39,656 nt of DNA. It comes from Kayfunavirus AN17P1. The notes beneath the pieces are model-generated. The model saw only the letters and a list, made by a program, of their open reading frames with translations. It was not told where the DNA came from and did not search any database. The stretch lies in sequence record OZ035755.1; one strand, given 5' to 3'. The position numbers and the translations under genes were made by a program. This document shows positions 1,260 through 39,656 of this stretch, piece after piece; within the stretch, counting starts at the first letter, position 1, and each line of letters begins with the position of its first letter.

Positions 1260-3018
1260 GAAAACACCCGCTGAAAGACAGGCAGAAATGGTCCAAAGGA
1301 TGAGGGACGACTTCGTGTTCTTCATCTTCGTTCTCTGGAAAGCACTAAGTCTTCCGGTTCCAACCCGCTGCCAGATAGATATGTGTAAGAAGCTGGCTGC
1401 TGGGGATAATCGCCGCTTCATCCTTCAGGCGTTCCGTGGTATTGGCAAGTCGTTTTTGACCTGTGGCTTTGTGGTCTGGAAGCTATGGAATAACCCAGAC
1501 TTGAAGTTCATGATTGTGTCGGCCTCAAAGGAACGAGCCGATGCGAACTCCATCTTCATCAAGCGAATCATCGACCTCATGCCTCAGCTTCGGGAACTCA
1601 AACCTAAGCAGGGGCAGCGAGATGCGGTTATCAGCTTCGACGTTGGACCAGCCAAGCCAGACCACTCACCTTCGGTTAAGTCCGTTGGTATCACTGGTCA
1701 GTTGACTGGTAGTCGTGCTGACATCCTGATTGCCGATGACGTGGAGGTTCCGAACAACTCAGCGACTCAGGCTGCACGAGACCGTCTATCAGAGCTTGTG
1801 AAAGAGTTCGACGCTATCCTGAAGCCGGGAGGTACGATCATCTATCTGGGTACTCCTCAGAACGAGATGACCCTGTACCGTGAGCTGGAAGGTCGTGGGT
1901 ACACCACTACTATCTGGCCCGCTCGTTATCCACGCGACAGGAAGGACTGGCAGTCTTACGGCGACCGTCTGGCTCCTATGCTTCAGGCAGAGCTGGAAGA
2001 GGACCCTGAGTCCTTCTACTGGCGTCCGACTGATGAAGTACGCTTCGATGATACGGACCTGAAGGAACGTGAGCTGTCCTACGGTAAAGCTGGCTTCGCT
2101 CTACAGTTCATGCTTAACCCGAACCTGAGTGATGCCGAGAAGTACCCTCTTAAGCTCCGTGACCTTATCGTAGCCGACTTGGACCCAGCGTCCAGCCCAA
2201 TGGTCTACCAATGGTTGCCGAACCCTCAGAACAAGCGTGAGGACGTTCCTAACGTTGGACTCATGGGTGACTCGTACCACACGTATCAGACTGTAGGTTC
2301 TGCCTTCAGCTCATACACCCAGAAGATTCTGGTCATTGACCCTAGTGGTCGTGGTAAGGATGAAACTGGATATGCGGTACTGTACCAGCTCAACGGCTAC
2401 ATCTTCGCTATGGAAGTTGGTGGCATGCGTGGTGGTTATGAAGACTCTACGCTGGAAGCCTTGGCTAAGATTGGTCGTAAGTGGAAGGTCAACGAGTACG
2501 TCATTGAGGGTAACTTCGGTGATGGTATGTACCTTGAGTTATTCAAGCCTGTAGCGGCCCGTATCCATCCTTCGTCTGTAACTGAAGTGAAGAGTAAGGG
2601 TCAGAAAGAACTCCGCATCTGTGACGTTCTGGAGCCTATCATGGGGTCTCACCGACTTATCGTTAACGCTGCTGCTATAGTCCAAGACTACCAGTCTGCC
2701 TCTGATAAGGATGGTGTTCGTAACCCTATCTACTCTCTCTTCTATCAGATGACACGTATCTCTCGTGAGCGTGGAGCCTTGGCACACGATGACCGACTTG
2801 ATGCGCTGGCTATCGGTGTACAGTTCTTCGTTGAGTCTATGGCTAAGGATGCTAGCAAAGGCGAACGTGAAGTCACTGAGGAATGGCTGGAGGAACAGAT
2901 GGAGAACCCACGGAAAGGCTTCGAGTCCATCCACACTGAGTTCTGGGACAATGGGGTCCGGGTAACTCACGATACGGACGACGAGCTTGGACTAGGGGCA
3001 TACGTTACGTTACACTAG
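1252..3018 (+). CDS. gene 19: Terminase large subunit (T7 gp19 homolog), 588 aa
   Basis: Length and position match T7 gp19 (586 aa); Walker A-like GIGKS and ATPase/nuclease-type motifs (LIADDVEVP); strong SD GGAGGGACTAT before ATG. Confidence 0.95.
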
Positions 3019-3027
3019 CTGAATGAA

Positions 3028-3076
3028 TAACTATAGGTGAAAGCTGCATGAATAAGCAGTTAGTAACCTATAGTTA
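3028..3076. repeat. Perfect 11-bp inverted repeat TAACTATAGGT / ACCTATAGTTA with 27-nt loop
   Basis: Arms at 3028-3038 and 3066-3076 are exact reverse complements; arms contain the promoter core ACTATAGG; lies directly after the terminase stop. Confidence 0.5.
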
Positions 3077-3112
3077 CTACCAGTCTAACATACTGTTTTA
3101 TAAGGAGTTTGG

Positions 3113-3136
3113 ACTTAACTATCACTATAGGGAAGA
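3113..3136 (+). promoter_or_regulatory. Phage RNAP promoter (phiOR-like, right end)
   Basis: TTAACTATCACTATAGGGAAG matches the 11-member consensus CTAAACTATCACTATAGGGA; +1 G at about 3130. Confidence 0.75.
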
Positions 3137-3315
3137 CCCCCGGTTACTTATAGTATTACTGTAGTGAATATACATATGCAGACTTTATTCAAGACCTTAG
3201 GAGGCAGACTCCGAGTTCTTACCTAAGGCTTGCACCGATGGAAGGAGGGTGATATTAATCATAATCCCTCCAATACAGATAGTCACCGACCATAGATACA
3301 GGAGGTATGTAGCAT

Positions 3316-3474
3316 ATGGCAAAGACCAAAGCTGTACTTAAAGCTCTGGCGACCAATCGAGCTACATACAGGTTTCTTGCTGCTGTTCTACTTGCTGCTG
3401 GCGTTACTGCTGGAAGTCAGTGGGTCGGGTGGGTCGAGACTCTCGTATGTTCTCTGGTCTCTCAGTGTAATTAA
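3316..3474 (+). CDS. Small membrane protein, 52 aa (gene 19.5 position)
   Basis: ATG with SD ACAGGAGG; translation MAKTKAVLKALATNRATYRFLAAVLLAAGVTAGSQWVGWVETLVCSLVSQCN has one hydrophobic helix; below the 60-aa track cutoff so read directly from sequence. Confidence 0.45.
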   Translation: MAKTKAVLKALATNRATYRFLAAVLLAAGVTAGSQWVGWVETLVCSLVSQCN

Positions 3475-3510
3475 CGCAATCATGATAACAATCAACGAAA
3501 GGAGGTAGGG

Positions 3511-3579
3511 ATGGACGAGGAGTCTTATGGGCCGTTCTCTGACGAAGATTATCAGACGGAGTGGGAATACGCGCATTGA
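3511..3579 (+). CDS. Very small acidic ORF, 22 aa (MDEESYGPFSDEDYQTEWEYAH)
   Basis: ATG preceded by SD AAAGGAGG at good spacing; no other support. Confidence 0.25.
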   Translation: MDEESYGPFSDEDYQTEWEYAH

Positions 3580-3583
3580 AGAC

Positions 3584-3624
3584 CTAAGGTCAGTTCATAG
3601 CTGACGCTACTCTACTGACCTTAG
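3584..3624. repeat. Inverted repeat CTAAGGTCAGT / ACTGACCTTAG (11-bp stem, 19-nt loop) near the right genome end
   Basis: Exact reverse-complement arms at 3584-3594 and 3614-3624; no downstream U-tract. Confidence 0.45.
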
Positions 3625-3699
3625 CTACTGTAGTCAAGGACTTTAGGTAACACCTTAATAGAAGCTCACTTAGGGTCATCCTACTTATTGGTCTATCCT

Positions 3700-4100
3700 A
3701 GTGTCGCCTGACCTACGGTCCTTGACCTACAGTAGCTGCCACCTACAGTATTCGATGAGTTTTGGACCAAAAGTTTGAGACCACATCTCACAGTTCAAGA
3801 ACCTCAAGTCTCCCCATAGGCCCTCTTTCAGTCCAGACCAAAGGCCCTACCCCAGTCTATCATAAGGTTAGACCGATGGTCAAGACTTCAGGTCAACGAT
3901 AGGTTGTGGCTATGGCTTAGGGAAGGACGATAGGTAGGGACTATTGGTCTGTCTTTGAGTCTCTATCTGTATCAGACCTTGAGTCACTACCTACAGTCTA
4001 ACTACCTACAGTCTAACTACCTACAGTCTAACTACCTACAGTCATCGACCATCGGTAATGCCGCTACCTACAGTCAGAGACCTACGGTTAATAGACACAA
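3700..4100. repeat. Genome terminus region: putative direct terminal repeat flanked by CCTAC(A/G)GT short repeats
   Basis: TCTCACAGTTCAAGAACC...CCCCATAGG at 3786 resembles the T7 (TCTCACAGTGTACGG) and T3 left-end sequences as I recall them; repeated GACCTACGGT / CACCTACAGT motifs on both sides mirror the CCTAAAG arrays flanking the T7 terminal repeat; no CDS. Repeat length cannot be read from a collapsed assembly. Confidence 0.5.
3986..4044. repeat. Tandem array, about 3.9 copies of 15-bp unit ACTACCTACAGTCTA
   Basis: Exact copies at 3986-4000, 4001-4015, 4016-4030 and a partial copy at 4031-4044. Confidence 0.9.
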
Positions 4101-4340
4101 GGCTATAGACTTAAGGTCTAAGACATGTTAGTCAAAGACTACATCCTCTTACACCATGGGGCCGACGATAGCTTAATCAATATTATTTCAAATTACCTAT
4201 TGACTATAGGTCCAGATTATGGCCTAATAGCTTCCGTCAACACGACACGGCAACAACCGGATAGTGAAGACGCCTGGTCATCCCGGTTAAGTAGACAGCC
4301 TGATAAGTCATACGAACAACAGGCAGATGACAGAAAGTAG

Positions 4341-4378
4341 TTGACAAGCAGTAACGATAAGATGTAAGCTGTACCACA
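4341..4378 (+). promoter_or_regulatory. Host sigma70 early promoter candidate (T7 A2/A3-like)
   Basis: Perfect -35 TTGACA (4341-4346), about 18-nt spacer, -10 TAAGCT, then GTACCACAT as in T7 A3 (TACGAT-GTACCACAT) as I recall it; about 200 nt upstream of the first early gene. Confidence 0.5.
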
Positions 4379-4486
4379 TCAAAACAACGGTGACGACCGA
4401 CACTGAAACGGTCTACCTGAAGTCCTCTGACTGAAGGGAATGCTCTTTAACAATCTGGATAAACTCTTAATGTGCGCCGATAGCGA

Positions 4487-4543
4487 CTAACTACAGGGTC
4501 TTTGAGTCTACATCTGAAGGCCCTGACTGATAGTCACTAACAA
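4487..4543 (+). promoter_or_regulatory. Conserved leader element, copy 1 (TAACTACAGGGTC ... CCTGACTGATAGTCACTAA), possible RNase III / translation-initiation leader
   Basis: Shares a 19-nt exact block CCTGACTGATAGTCACTAA and a TAACTACAGG(G)TC block with 4842-4892; ends about 17 nt before the start codon at 4560; small CAGGG/CCCTG stem. Confidence 0.5.
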
Positions 4544-4559
4544 CCTAAGAGGATTCATT

Positions 4560-4838
4560 ATGAGACTGAACAAAGCTACAGCAGAAGCCTTTCGCAAGGA
4601 GCTTGAATCAAGATTATTGTGTGGAGTGGCGGAAGGAGCCGCTCGATATAAAGAGAATGGTCTAACGTTCAAGCGCTTTATGTGGGATTGCTATCACGGA
4701 GTGGGCCATAAAAAGTTGCAGGAAATAATCACCAGCAACAATGCAGAAGTGCAAGTGATAGGAGGATATATGGCTAACGTGAAGGATTCACACATCGAGA
4801 CCATGCTTAAGAATGCACTTAACGATGTAGCCTACTAG
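4560..4838 (+). CDS. Hypothetical early protein, 92 aa; first gene to enter the cell, upstream of ocr
   Basis: SD AAGAGG before ATG; uninterrupted ORF; sits behind a copy of the same leader element as ocr; no recognisable family. Confidence 0.6.
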   Translation: MRLNKATAEAFRKELESRLLCGVAEGAARYKENGLTFKRFMWDCYHGVGHKKLQEIITSNNAEVQVIGGYMANVKDSHIETMLKNALNDVAY

Positions 4839-6387: not shown

Positions 6388-6455
6388 AGGTCTAAGACTC
6401 CAAGTGAAAGACCAAAGAGACTTTAAGTGAAAGACTAATAACAAGGACTTTAAGT

Positions 6456-35600: not shown

Positions 35601-36559
35601 ATGCTGGACGTCAGGGATTCCTGTCTGACATCGTGGAGCATAGTCTGACTGGCAGTAAGCGTCGGTTCGATGACCGCTGGCTTAAGACCGCTGGTATATC
35701 TGACGAGCAGTGGAAGGGCATTAAGTCCCTAATCCGTGAGTCAGTGACTCGTGGTCCAGACGGGAAGTACACCATCAAGGATAAGAAGGCGTTCAGTCAG
35801 GACCCAAGGGCTATGGACCTGTGGCGTATGGGTGACACCATCGCTGACGAAACGTTACTCCGGCCCCACAAGCTGTCAAACATGGACGCCAAGGCTTATG
35901 GTCCTCTCGCTAAGACTGTCCTTCAGTTTAAGAACTTCGTCATCAAGTCTATCAATGGGAGAACCATGCGAACCTTCTATAACGCCACGAAGAACAACAG
36001 AGCGATTGACGCTGCACTGTCGACCGTGATGTCTATGGGTCTGGCTGGTATCTACTACATGGCTCAGGCGCATGTCAAGGCTTATGCTATGCAGGATGGT
36101 CGAGACAGTGACTACCTTAAGCAAGCTCTGGACCCAACGATGATTGGCTATGCGGCCCTGTCCCGTAGTTCACATCTTGGTGGCCCACTTGGGGTAGCTA
36201 ACATTCTGGGAGGCATCGCTGGATATGAGGACACTAAGATGCTCCGTTCGTCTATCCTACCTCGTTCGCCTACAGAGAAGCCTGAGCGTGCCATCGCGTA
36301 TGGTGCAGCTACAAGTGACCCTGTGATGAATGTTGTTGGTAACTTCTTGGAGCAGGTTCCAGCTTTCGGATATGCTGCTAACGTTGGCGCTTCGGCTTAC
36401 AACTTGGCTGGCTACCTCAAGGCTGATACTCGTGTCAACGAGCGTGACTACATGACCGGGATGTATAATACGTTCCGTGAACTGGTTCCGAACGACCCCA
36501 TTACCCAGAAGCTGCTGCTTGGAACGTTTGAGGAGCAAGGCATCCACATCAAGGACTAA
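32672..36559 (+). CDS. gene 16: Internal virion protein D with N-terminal lytic transglycosylase domain (T7 gp16 homolog), 1295 aa
   Basis: Long collinear similarity to T7 gp16 as I recall it (VDPLTYVP, RLEARETARN, RSPTGMQSGASGK, YGISH..QFERSS, GLENNSFLEARNLFDSD, NRRVNGDIAIMAGTGKTTK, MDLWRMGD, RAIDAALS); the N-terminal roughly 150 aa fit a peptidoglycan hydrolase domain. Confidence 0.95.
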   Translation: MATRGIRNNNPGNIRVSKDQWEGMTGDDGAFVTFDSPESGVRALGKNLLSYGRQGYDSIEKIINRWAPPNENDTQAYIDSVVAATGIPATQSLDLSDPDTLSSLAQAISFHETGSRYDPEVYQQGVARALNGISPKTPPVSANVFDALTEGLKAKPKVALGENLPTAAGLNIEGQAPEAPNESFGEMFYKATGETMQEREDRSTWFGFGAATEAEVKNSMVGVAIRAGKTEDSLDVIGDVFNPTRWNNHKWSREELDQIRNAGVLPQYYGVITGGSPQNLTELINLALENQKLDQEKAKAGTGAQLAAGVIGAGVDPLTYVPIAGQVGKGGKLVNKMFTVAAQSGALAGVSEMARTSVVGGDAHVAEAILGGALFGGGMTAIADGLGRALGRNTNEFAGPATRLEARETARNVDGQDLSRLPIQEGEQTFSHQGVKFADVPNEPGSVRLEDGSILIGENPLNPKTRQVFDEVIEPERAAAGVNLGGLTEIGLKLLRSENPEIRGVAADLVRSPTGMQSGASGKIGTTASDVFERLRAVDHRFYNDIDDAVTEALKDPYFQTAFWRDSGAFRQDIYQRVSMAIEDGSGNLKAELTPGELKVYDLLKNQFDAKREMMENPAMFGRPDAQSIFPGSRFKGTYVPHVYSKQMKELYIKELGSPEALQEAIKKSWLTSYASRPEVKKRVDEALLEAYPTLTPEGLAAAVDKYANDKAYGISHTEQFERSSVMEENINGLVGLENNSFLEARNLFDSDMSIVLPNGQTFSVNNLREWDMDKIVPAYNRRVNGDIAIMAGTGKTTKGMKDLVETMMNKAGDDGKLKGEVSTLRDTLKILTGRARRDGADDVAFATVMRTMTDLSFFAKNAYMGVQNLTEIGGMLARGNVRALLHGVPMFRDLAFRNKKVGAAEIKDLHNVIFGKELDDSIRPSKQDVIDRLRSYSDLGRGAATALGTAKYYTGELVVRSPFTKVLNGTTNYLLDAGRQGFLSDIVEHSLTGSKRRFDDRWLKTAGISDEQWKGIKSLIRESVTRGPDGKYTIKDKKAFSQDPRAMDLWRMGDTIADETLLRPHKLSNMDAKAYGPLAKTVLQFKNFVIKSINGRTMRTFYNATKNNRAIDAALSTVMSMGLAGIYYMAQAHVKAYAMQDGRDSDYLKQALDPTMIGYAALSRSSHLGGPLGVANILGGIAGYEDTKMLRSSILPRSPTEKPERAIAYGAATSDPVMNVVGNFLEQVPAFGYAANVGASAYNLAGYLKADTRVNERDYMTGMYNTFRELVPNDPITQKLLLGTFEEQGIHIKD

Positions 36560-36578
36560 ACTATCACTATAGGAAACG
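36555..36578 (+). promoter_or_regulatory. Phage RNAP promoter (phi17-like)
   Basis: GACTAAACTATCACTATAGGAAAC; overlaps the gp16 stop. Confidence 0.75.
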
Positions 36579-36623
36579 GGAGGCGCTACCATAGGTCTCC
36601 GTTTAAATAACAAAGGAGGCATA

Positions 36624-39155
36624 ATGTCCACGATTACACAATTCCCTTCAGGAAACACTCAGTACAGGATTGAGTTCGACTACCTAGCCAGAACGTTTGT
36701 TGTTGTTACGCTGGTGAATAGCTCTAACCCTACCCTGAACCGTGTACTGGAAGTTGGTCGAGATTACCGATTCCTTAATCCAACGATGATTGAGATGTTG
36801 GTTGACCAATCAGGTTTCGACATAGTTCGTATTCACCGTCAGACTGGAACTGACTTAGTGGTAGACTTCAGGAATGGCTCAGTGTTGACAGCTAGTGACC
36901 TGACCAATGCAGAGCTTCAGGCTATCCATATTGCAGAAGAAGGTCGAGACCAAACGGTTGACTTAGCGAAGGAATATGCCGATGCTGCTGGTAGCTCTGC
37001 TGGCAACGCTAAGGATAGCGAGGACGAAGCACGCCGAATCGCTGCGAGTATCAGGGAAGCTGGTCTAATTGGCTATATTACCCGTCGCTCCTTCGAGAAA
37101 GGCTACAACGTTACAACATGGAGTGAGGTCCTGCTATGGGAAGAGGATGGTGATTATTACCGCTGGGATGGTACGCTTCCAAAGAACGTTCCTGCTGGTT
37201 CAACTCCTGAAACTTCCGGTGGGATTGGATTAGGTGCGTGGGTTAGTGTTGGTGATGCTGCTTTAAGAAGTCAGATTTCAAACCCGGAAGGGGCAATACT
37301 CTACCCGGAATTGCAGATGGCAAGATGGCGTGATGAGGGTGATGTTCGAGGCTGGGGTGCTAAAGGGGATGGTGTAACAGATAGTACGGAGAATATAGCT
37401 GCTTCACTAAATTCTCAAAAAGCTGTCGTAGCATCAGAAGGTGTATTCTCTAGTTCTGGTATTAATAGTAATTACTGTAACTTAGACGGTAGGGGTAGTG
37501 GCGTGCTAAGTCACCGTTCCAGTACAGGTAACTACTTAGTATTTAACAATCCACGTACAGGTCGCTTAAGTAATATTACGGTAGAAAGTAATAAGGCGAC
37601 TGATACAACTCAGGGACAGCAGGTATCTCTTGCGGGTGGAAGTGATGTTACTGTAAGTGACGTTAACTTCTCAAACGTTAAAGGTACTGGTTTCAGTTTA
37701 ATCGCATACCCTAATGATGCGCCACCTGATGGACTTATGATTAAAGGCATTCGAGGTAGCTATTCCGGCTATGCTACTAATAAGGCAGCCGGATGCGTAC
37801 TTGCTGACTCCTCAGTTAACTCCCTCATAGATAACGTCATTGCTAAGAACTACCCTCAGTTCGGAGCAGTGGAGTTGAAAGGTACAGCCAGTTACAACAT
37901 AGTCAGTAATGTTATAGGGGCAGATTGCCAGCATGTAACTTACAACGGCACTGAAGGGCTAATAGCTCCTTCTAATAACATTATAAAGGGGGTGATTGCT
38001 AATAACCCTAAGTATGCAGCGGTTGTTGCAGGCAAAGGAAATACGAACTTAATCTCAGACGTGCTCGTAGATTACTCAACTTCTGATGCTAGGCAGGCTC
38101 ATGGCATTACCGTAGAAGGGTCTGATAACGTCATAAATAATGTGCTTATGTCAGGATGTGATGGTACTAACTCTTTAGGACAAGGGCAGACTGCTACAAT
38201 TGCACGCTTTATAGGTACAGCTAATAACAACTATGCGTCTGTATTTCCTAGCTACAGTGCTACAGGTGTTATTACTTTCGAATCCGGCTCTACCCGTAAC
38301 TTCGTAGAGGTAAAGCACCCTGGCAGGAGAAACGACCTTCTCAGTTCTGCTAGTACTATTGACGGTGCAGCTACTATTGACGGCACTAGTAATAGTAACG
38401 TAGTGCACGCACCTGCCTTAGGGCAGTACATAGGTAGTATGTCAGGTAGGTTCGAATGGCGGATTAAGGCCATGTCACTCCCTTCAGGCGTTCTTACTTC
38501 TGCTGATAAGTACAGAATGCTTGGGGATGGTGCTGTGTCATTAGCTGTAGGTGGTGGTGCATCTTCTCAAGTTCGACTATTTACTTCTGATGGTATTTAT
38601 CGGACAGTATCCCTCACCAACGGCAACGTGCGTCTTCCTACCAGTAGCACAGGTTATTTGCAGTTAGGTCCTGATGCAATGACCCCAGATAGTACTAATA
38701 CATACGCATTAGGTTCCGCAAGTAGAGCATGGTCTGGCGGTTTTACTCAATCAGCATTCACTGTTGTCTCAGATGCTAGGGATAAAACAGAGCCTCTTAA
38801 TATCTCAGATGCTTTACTGGATGCTTGGTCTGAAGTTGACTTTGTGCAGTTTCAGTACTTGGACCGAATTGAGGAGAAGGGTGCAGACTCAGCTAGATGG
38901 CACTTCGGCATCATCGCTCAGCGAGCTAAGGAGGCCTTCGAACGTCACGGTATAGATGCACATCGCTATGGCTTCCTGTGCTTCGACAGTTGGGATGATG
39001 TATACGAGGAAGATGCCAATGGCTCTCGTAAACTGATTACACCAGCAGGTTCCCGCTACGGTATTCGTTACGAGGAAGTACTGATATTAGAGGCTGCGTT
39101 GATGCGGCGTACTATTAAGCGTATGCAGGAAGCATTAGCTGTTATGTCTAAGTGA
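36624..39155 (+). CDS. gene 17: Tail fiber / tailspike: T7 gp17-like N-terminal tail-attachment domain, beta-helix (pectate-lyase-like) domain, C-terminal intramolecular chaperone (peptidase S74-like) domain; 843 aa
   Basis: First roughly 150 aa collinear with T7 gp17 (FDYLARTFVVVTL, DYRF, VDFRNGSVLTASDL, AIHIAEEGRD); middle has GAKGDGVTD beta-helix hallmark and Gly/Asn/Ser/Thr/Val-rich repeats; C-terminus VVSDARDKTEP...WHFGIIAQ...YGFLCFDSWDD fits the self-cleaving chaperone domain of endosialidase-type tailspikes. Confidence 0.9.
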   Translation: MSTITQFPSGNTQYRIEFDYLARTFVVVTLVNSSNPTLNRVLEVGRDYRFLNPTMIEMLVDQSGFDIVRIHRQTGTDLVVDFRNGSVLTASDLTNAELQAIHIAEEGRDQTVDLAKEYADAAGSSAGNAKDSEDEARRIAASIREAGLIGYITRRSFEKGYNVTTWSEVLLWEEDGDYYRWDGTLPKNVPAGSTPETSGGIGLGAWVSVGDAALRSQISNPEGAILYPELQMARWRDEGDVRGWGAKGDGVTDSTENIAASLNSQKAVVASEGVFSSSGINSNYCNLDGRGSGVLSHRSSTGNYLVFNNPRTGRLSNITVESNKATDTTQGQQVSLAGGSDVTVSDVNFSNVKGTGFSLIAYPNDAPPDGLMIKGIRGSYSGYATNKAAGCVLADSSVNSLIDNVIAKNYPQFGAVELKGTASYNIVSNVIGADCQHVTYNGTEGLIAPSNNIIKGVIANNPKYAAVVAGKGNTNLISDVLVDYSTSDARQAHGITVEGSDNVINNVLMSGCDGTNSLGQGQTATIARFIGTANNNYASVFPSYSATGVITFESGSTRNFVEVKHPGRRNDLLSSASTIDGAATIDGTSNSNVVHAPALGQYIGSMSGRFEWRIKAMSLPSGVLTSADKYRMLGDGAVSLAVGGGASSQVRLFTSDGIYRTVSLTNGNVRLPTSSTGYLQLGPDAMTPDSTNTYALGSASRAWSGGFTQSAFTVVSDARDKTEPLNISDALLDAWSEVDFVQFQYLDRIEEKGADSARWHFGIIAQRAKEAFERHGIDAHRYGFLCFDSWDDVYEEDANGSRKLITPAGSRYGIRYEEVLILEAALMRRTIKRMQEALAVMSK

Positions 39156-39493
39156 GTAATACTGGTACGGTATTTTCGCACAATGAAATCGTTGAACACA
39201 CTGACGAGGAGGGTAATGTCACTACTACGGAAGAACCTGTATACACCGAGGTGTTTATTCACGAAGAGGGTGGGGAGTAGGGTGTTCGGCCTGACGGAAT
39301 TTTCTTTGCTGAAGCCGCTTATCAGAGAAGAAAACTGGAAAGAATCGAAGCCAGACTTTCTGCTCTTGAACAGAAGTAATAAACAAAACCATTTTGCCAT
39401 TAAGTTGGTGTGGGGGGGTAGAGACTAACTACACGCTAACCAACGTATGTAACAACTTTGGGTCACGGACGACCCGCTTTAAACTGGAGGTTT

Positions 39494-39656
39494 TATGATT
39501 GAGTTAGACTTCAAGAATGAGGTCCTTAAAGCCTCTCCTATCGTCGGGACCGCTGCGGCTGATGGTGCCAGTCGGTTCTTCTTCGGACTTACACTGAACG
39601 AATGGTTCTACGTTGCAGCTATCGCGTACACCGTTGTCCAGATTGGTGTGCTAGTC
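39494..39656 (+). CDS. gene 17.5: Class II holin (T7 gp17.5 homolog), 5' part only; runs off the window end
   Basis: MIELDFKNEVLKASPIVGTAAADGASRFFFGLTLNEWFYVAAIAYTVVQIG... versus T7 gp17.5 MLSLDFNNELIKAAPIVGTGVADVSARLFFGLSLNEWFYVAAIAYTVVQIG as I recall it; SD CTGGAGG. Confidence 0.85.

Follow-up and report, generated by a model that had tools for sequence, protein, structure and literature searches.

The window analysed here is the whole 39,656-nt stretch of Kayfunavirus AN17P1 (OZ035755.1), and the locus under study is the spacer between its tailspike gene (gene 17, 36624-39155 on the plus strand) and its holin gene (gene 17.5). Since the TGA stop codon of gene 17 (39153-39155) ends at 39155 and the holin ATG (39495-39497) begins at 39495, the spacer runs from 39156 to 39494, and the roughly 340 bp given by an earlier, sequence-only reading of this DNA measure 339 nt. 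The holin start is served by a Shine-Dalgarno sequence, GGAGG, at 39486-39490, four bases 5' of the ATG, and the gene extends past the end of the window. The features that frame the spacer, together with the open stretch that enters it from gene 17, are as follows:

36555-36577, plus strand: K1F-type phage RNA polymerase promoter, with one mismatch to the K1F consensus MCTAAACTATCACTATAGGRAAA
36624-37301, plus strand: gene 17 part 1, K1F-type N-terminal anchor and linker (gp17 codons 1-226), with K1F-specific bases up to 37301
37313-39155, plus strand: gene 17 part 2, assigned by homology to a K5 lyase (KflA-type heparosan lyase) that has a C-terminal chaperone domain of its own and ends in the TGA
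39156-39428, plus strand: in-frame open stretch after the gene 17 TGA, which runs through the remnant described below (off-frame) and intergenic DNA
39495-39656, plus strand: 5' part of gene 17.5 (class II holin), the same as the holin starts of K1F and relatives, which are annotated as holins in their records

The promoter consensus was taken from the annotation of the ASO2B record.

Gene 17 itself is a chimera in which a K1F anchor is fused to a K5 lyase cassette. In pairwise BLAST comparisons, positions 36400-37382 are 96.7% identical to K1F, 37238-39171 are 92.9% identical to UE-S5b over its K5 lyase, 37377-39159 are 95.5% identical to gp46 of K1-5, and 39166-39656 match K1F again at 94.1% identity. 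Megablast of 36560-39200 likewise finds the gene 17 body 96% identical to the K5/K1-5 enzyme and 93% identical to the K5 lyase of the 73-kb Gamaleyavirus genomes UE-S5a and UE-S5b. At the protein level, Pfam places Phage_T7_tail and Tail_spike_N in the N-terminal part and Peptidase_S74 at gp17 residues 716-776, while residues 242-716 match the K5 lyase structure (PDB 2x3h) with E = 1e-288. Homology to 2x3h, an N-terminal anchor and a C-terminal S74 domain are all found in one protein, which fits a K5 lyase (KflA) tailspike. The full length of gp17 also matches PDB 9vvr, a tail spike protein of 843 residues present in 18 chains (1819 bits), so that a tailspike of essentially this chimeric K5-lyase make-up has already been solved; the literature search found no paper citing PDB 9VVR.

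Two frames of the spacer had drawn attention. The gene 17 frame remains open past the TGA for 90 sense codons, up to a TAA at 39426-39428 (91 codons with the stop), as had been described. The second frame can be read from a GTG at 39152, which overlaps the gene 17 stop codon as GTGA, and everything reported of it is present: an acidic 42-aa peptide, MSNTGTVFSHNEIVEHTDEEGNVTTTEEPVYTEVFIHEEGGE, terminated by an amber TAG at 39278-39280, then a helical tail, GVRPDGIFFAEAAYQRRKLERIEARLSALEQK, and finally TAA TAA at 39377-39382. On reading the sequence, no Shine-Dalgarno motif is visible 5' of either frame, also as claimed. The sequence-only reading had further put the chance of the open gene 17 frame at about 1% and considered it unlikely to be accidental. 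The figure holds per frame, base composition giving P = 0.0095 (0.95%) for 91 open codons, but the unlikelihood does not, as stop-free runs of at least 91 codons occur 74 times in the window, 36 of them on the minus strand. T7-like phages are transcribed from one strand only, and the minus strand can therefore be taken as gene-less; there, 40 of 1974 inter-stop intervals (2.0%) reach at least 90 codons. A 90-codon open run is unremarkable within this genome. Antisense to the gene 17 end and the remnant (39071-39424, minus strand), there is also a run open for 118 codons, with a 110-aa ATG ORF; it is one of the 36 on that strand and probably meaningless.

BLAST of positions 39100-39560 against phage genomes returns 271 records. 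In K1F, as in other phages whose gene 17 has 1064 codons, similarity sets in abruptly at 39166 and continues into the holin. This divides the spacer into the following parts:

39156-39165, plus strand: donor DNA past the K5 lyase stop, ten nucleotides GTAATACTGG, present in UE-S5b and absent from K1F and K1-5
39166-39382, plus strand: putative pseudogene remnant, the last 71 codons and double stop of a K1F-type endosialidase gene, with 98.2% nucleotide identity to K1F 35642-35858
39278-39280, plus strand: amber TAG within the remnant, at a codon that is TGG in K1F, AN24P4 and UE-S5b
39383-39494, plus strand: K1F-type 17/17.5 intergenic region, which aligns with K1F apart from an 18-nt indel

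By these alignments, the spacer is made up of three pieces, namely donor DNA (10 nt), a pseudogene fragment (217 nt) and a normal intergenic region (112 nt), the last containing a run of seven G residues (G7, 39412-39418), a small hairpin (GGGTC-ACGGAC-GACCC) and the holin Shine-Dalgarno sequence. The identity of about 98% between the 217 nt and the 3' end of K1F gene 17 includes the double TAA. The sequence-only reading had listed a decayed gene and a remnant of module exchange as separate possibilities; with 39166-39382 matching the 3' end of the K1F endosialidase gene, they prove to be one and the same explanation, and it is supported. The informative frame is the second one, not the gene 17 frame on which that reading had laid stress.

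The matching stretch is annotated as the end of gene 17 in the K1F record (AM084414); the product of that gene is the precursor of the endosialidase endoNF, and the C-terminal part of the protein, gp17-CTD, is an intramolecular chaperone domain. K1F gp17 ends in ...DTVFSHNEIVEHTDEEGNVTTTEEPVYTEVVIHEEGEEWGVRPDGIFFAEAAYQRRKLERIEARLSALEQK before its stop codon. The remnant peptide agrees with K1F gp17 residues 995-1064 at 67 of 70 positions, and its alignment to residues 206-275 of PDB 3gw6 gives the same 67/70 with E = 3.9e-40. The second frame is thus the former coding frame of K1F codons 995-1064, and the remnant corresponds to the distal half of the endosialidase C-terminal intramolecular chaperone domain. 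Homology to a characterised domain of this type (CIMCD) is clear from both the protein and the DNA. The remnant begins at K1F codon 994, and the Peptidase_S74 core and the autocleavage site are absent from it. It is not fused in frame to a fibre or spike either: its frame is shifted with respect to gene 17, it is located past the gene 17 TGA, and it has a TAG inside. Pfam gives no match for the remnant peptide because the Peptidase_S74 model, at residues 5-61 of the 154-aa K1F CTD, ends some 58 residues into the domain, and the remnant lies beyond it.

The changes accumulated by the remnant are unlike those of intact genes. Three changes in it are private to AN17P1, namely V>F, E>G and W>stop, the last being the amber codon that replaces Trp-1032 of K1F (TGG). 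Full-length endosialidase copies (those with a 1064-codon gene 17 or an annotated endosialidase) differ from K1F in the same segment by 3-7 synonymous changes and 0-2 conservative replacements. This excess of non-synonymous changes suggests that the remnant is under relaxed selection. The endosialidase 3' end is itself widely distributed: it is 94-98% DNA-identical in 40-kb Kayfunavirus, 73-kb Gamaleyavirus, 47.5-kb IME207 and 155-kb YX22 genomes, and 89% identical in the 116-kb IME392. Such identity (94-98%) across unrelated phage types fits a wide and recent horizontal spread of the K1 endosialidase cassette.

Both ends of the exchanged segment can be located by comparison with K1F and UE-S5b:

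37302-37312, plus strand: left crossover interval, with the last UE-S5b-specific mismatch at 37301 and the first K1F-specific mismatch at 37313
39166-39171, plus strand: right crossover at a 6-nt microhomology, TACGGT, with UE-S5b homology up to 39171 and K1F homology from 39166

Base by base, the window follows K1F to 37301 and UE-S5b from 37313, and this switch places the left crossover in a linker common to both tailspikes (...GAWVSVGDAALRSQISNPEGAILYPEL...). Position 37307, inside the interval, carries a change private to the window. On the right side, the window reads TGA GTAATACTGG TACGGT ATTTTCGC. Past its K5 lyase, UE-S5b reads TGA GTAATACTGG TACGGT TAGATC, and inside gene 17 of K1F, at about codon 995, the sequence is ...GACCGA TACGGT ATTTTCGC. 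Because TACGGT is common to the post-stop DNA of UE-S5b and to K1F gene 17, it marks the right crossover. The flanks follow one parent, the insert follows another, and the breakpoints between them are definable, as in a recombination scar.

The donor is represented here by UE-S5b, an N4-like Gamaleyavirus that is 92.9% identical and serves as the best available stand-in; a donor from that lineage would fit these data. The lyase of K1-5 type ends differently, in ASLPK followed by TAA, and does not have the GTAATACTGG bases downstream, which makes a UE-S5b-type cassette the better proxy. The UE-S5b record (PP301341) has other features at its tailspike genes. The 11-mer GATACGGTATT is found in its endosialidase gene (locus ~3660-3930) exactly at the site of the Kayfunavirus K5-lyase junction, and it occurs again some 250 nt downstream, where the match to K1F stops. 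At locus ~6418-6440, the K5 lyase gene is followed by GGTACGGTTAG. It may be that GATACGGTATT is a recurrent cassette-boundary motif in tailspike exchange.

Fifteen Kayfunavirus records carry this K5-lyase gene 17 (13 with query coverage of at least 80%, the two ZG49 records with exactly 80%). Nine of these were fetched and their spacers aligned; all nine have an identical stop codon, the same 10 donor nucleotides and an identical junction, which argues for a single acquisition. Downstream of this common junction the spacers are in various states of decay:

AN24P4: full remnant with an intact frame and TGG; spacer of 341 nt
AN17P1 (the window): full remnant with an amber codon; spacer of 339 nt
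101120B1-2: 1-bp deletion and 1-bp insertion in the remnant; spacer of 334 nt
22664UKE3-2 and SHAK7854: 173-nt deletion between ACTGG repeats (39161-65 and 39334-38); spacers of 183 and 186 nt
Midid: deletion of about 208 nt (39210-39417); spacer of 130 nt
PDP21P1, R1, IME177 and ZG49: 235-nt deletion between ACAC repeats (39196-99 and 39431-34); spacer of 104 nt

Five siblings of 101120B1-2 have the same hit statistics as that genome and lie outside the alignment. The full 217 nt are kept by 8 of the 16 K5-lyase Kayfunavirus genomes (the window plus the 15 database records), and loss of the remnant is therefore not rapid. The only stretch that none of the nine aligned relatives has lost is 39431-39494, the 64 nt immediately 5' of the holin ATG. 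The comparison with relatives that had been proposed as a check shows neither spacer frame to be conserved across these nine. An inherited junction is thus followed by a decaying leftover, which across these genomes shows an amber codon, two frameshifts, three distinct deletions and the excess of non-synonymous changes.

Several of these records have peculiarities of their own. In ZG49 (NC_047777), two consecutive tail-spike CDS are annotated at 1565-4805, corresponding to window positions 37963-38672, and about 710 bp of the K5 lyase gene are tandemly doubled (BLAST finds matches to both 36400-38672 and 37963-39205). Either gene 17 of ZG49 is truly split by an internal duplication, or the doubling arose in assembly. 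Among relatives, the length of the G7 run at 39412-39418 (flanks 39403-39425) varies, and about 18 extra nucleotides are present near it in K1F, 22664UKE3-2 and SHAK7854, flanked in K1F by GGTAGA direct repeats. The area is either a further hotspot of slippage and deletion or a place of homopolymer sequencing uncertainty. The SHAK7854 record (OR594182, UNVERIFIED, circular) has a feature table about 2.5 kb out of register with its sequence, and its tailspike DNA sits under features named terminase, spanin and holin.

With a probability of about 0.93, we consider the spacer to be a recombination scar, in which a K5 lyase cassette replaced the body of a K1F-type endosialidase gene and the stranded 3' end of that gene is now decaying. 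The ancestor would have been a K1F-group T7-like phage (Kayfunavirus) with a 1064-codon endosialidase gene 17, in which the incoming cassette took the place of endosialidase codons ~227 to 994. On the left, the crossover would have used the linker segment common to both tailspikes (37302-37312). On the right, it would have been illegitimate, at the 6-nt TACGGT that begins 11 nt past the incoming stop codon. Because the K5 lyase came with a chaperone domain and a stop codon of its own, the endosialidase 3' end would have been left untranslated: its last 71 codons would lie stranded downstream, out of frame, with neither start codon nor ribosome-binding site. The stranded piece would then decay, by point mutations first and by microhomology-mediated deletions later, and the 90-codon open stretch would be an accident of the frame created by the joint. 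We infer the direction of the exchange, from a K1-type ancestor to K5, because K1F-type phages possess the whole of the domain from which the truncated fragment derives, and because the fragment is contiguous with K1F-type downstream DNA. In strictness, an ancestor with a different tailspike that merely had a K1F-type chaperone tail would fit too.

Could the extra DNA be kept as a non-coding element, acting in mRNA processing or stability, as a spacer that tunes holin expression, or as a homology arm for swaps? All 217 nt persist in half of the genomes, K1F-identical DNA borders the variable module on both sides, as the N-terminal anchor and as the remnant, and it has been proposed that new receptor-binding genes may use truncated ones as docking sites (PMC6872550). 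However, three independent deletions remove 173-235 nt and, over all relatives, leave just the 64 nt next to the holin ATG, and no signal was found in the spacer by any of the searches made. Of nine K1F-type promoter sites in the window (none being expected), none is in the spacer; a scan of 38900-39656 for sigma-70 promoters and intrinsic terminators finds none there; Rfam returns no family for 39000-39656 at an E-value of up to 1; and the folding of 39383-39500 is equal to that of shuffled sequences (z-score -0.38). The GGGTC/GACCC hairpin is small, and it is weakened in Midid. If the segment served as a homology arm, it would do so as a side effect and not through selection for that role. 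A maintained non-coding role is on these grounds quite unlikely.

The side effect might nonetheless have consequences. The remnant and the K1F-type 5' anchor could permit switching between K1 and K5 by homologous recombination with co-infecting K1F-type phages, a doubtful but not fanciful proposal; if it were true, lineages that keep the remnant would be more "switchable" than those that have deleted it. A weaker variant of this idea supposes that a GTGA-coupled fragment (from the TGG allele) interferes with, or assists, trimerisation of the chaperone domain.

It is very unlikely that the remnant frame is a small functional gene, encoding either the 42-aa peptide or, through suppression or in the TGG allele, a 75-aa chaperone fragment whose translation is coupled by GTGA. 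The GTG at 39152 does overlap the gene 17 stop codon, and the frame is uninterrupted for 75 codons in AN24P4, so that coupling could be possible in principle; moreover, the GenBank record MZ234022 has a 55-aa CDS at the same place, under the name "tail fiber protein". But the frame lacks a Shine-Dalgarno sequence, it is stopped by the amber codon here, broken by two frameshifts in 101120B1-2 and mostly deleted in seven relatives, and the window's private substitutions are non-synonymous or nonsense. The fragment is also without the Peptidase_S74 core and cleavage site, and the natural deletion variants are isolated, propagating phages.

Programmed read-through of the TGA, by which some of the tailspike subunits would gain a basic extension of 90 residues at the C-terminus, was the other possibility raised by the sequence-only reading, and it finds no support. 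The frame is indeed open for 90 codons here and for 114 in AN24P4, but in relatives with the same tailspike the extension shrinks to 9 codons (101120B1-2) or to 16, 45 and 35 codons (the others). The same off-frame is already open in K1F, where the DNA codes in another frame and the open stretch is an extension of nothing. The 90-aa in-frame extension has no Pfam match, and no structured RNA was found downstream of the stop codon (Rfam over 39000-39656, folding over 39383-39500 only). If the chaperone domain is cleaved during maturation like K1F gp17-CTD, the extension would, by analogy, be expected to be discarded with it. Read-through is for these reasons highly improbable. Finally, a sequencing or assembly error that created the gene 17 stop or the spacer, as could be suspected from the G7 run, which is prone to miscalling and whose length differs between records, is barely conceivable, since an identical TGA, 10 nt and junction are found in nine aligned records from several sources, UE-S5b has the identical stop, and the full-length 843-aa protein has been solved as 9vvr.

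As a recombination scar, then, the spacer records a switch in capsule specificity, from K1 endosialidase to K5 lyase, with both breakpoints at base resolution. One crossover used shared linker homology and the other only a 6-nt microhomology, and the cassette is closest to those of N4-like phages. The sister genomes show how fast, and along which route, a compact genome of the T7 type sheds DNA that has no use, and the natural deletions among them indicate that the remnant is dispensable. Neither open frame of the spacer should be annotated as a gene, and the 55-aa CDS of GenBank MZ234022 is best regarded as a pseudogene fragment. K1F-group coliphages are therapeutically relevant. Modular exchange of tailspikes behind a conserved T7/K1F anchor, with leftover gene fragments, is well documented; this is an ordinary recombination scar, and it leaves known phage biology unchanged. 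A literature search for the remnant, for K5-lyase Kayfunaviruses and for ZG49 found no paper describing this remnant; the only relevant one was PMC8614997, in which the gene is called a K5 lyase in 101120B1-2 and the PM phages and the spacer is not discussed.

The closest known counterpart of the remnant is K1F gp17-CTD (PDB 3GW6), whose last 70 residues, including the terminal helix ...AYQRRKLERIEARLSALEQK, it matches at 67 positions, and with which it has the double TAA in common; in K1F, too, the downstream intergenic region and then the holin follow in the same order. Unlike gp17-CTD, which comprises about 153 codons, the remnant retains no more than the final 71, is unfused and has an amber codon inside, which makes it a fragment and not a functional domain. 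The catalytic module and chaperone domain of gene 17 resemble the K5 lyases of K5 and K1-5 (Vectrevirus) and of UE-S5b (Gamaleyavirus) (2X3H, 9VVR), with 93-96% DNA identity, and the UE-S5b lyase and gene 17 are alike in ending with AVMSK and TGA and in the 16 nt that follow. In K1-5, however, the lyase docks via a short peptide on an adapter protein (PMC6872550), whereas here it is fused to a T7/K1F-type anchor. Truncated first or second receptor-binding proteins (RBPs) have been catalogued in Klebsiella phages of the KP32 and KP34 types, and they were suggested to be docking sites for new modules (PMC6872550). The arrangement in AN17P1 is similar, in that the anchor is kept, the specificity module is swapped and a truncated leftover lies beside the active gene. 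However, the Klebsiella phage leftovers are 5' fragments or docking-peptide ORFs that are possibly expressed, whereas the one described here is a 3' fragment that has no start codon.
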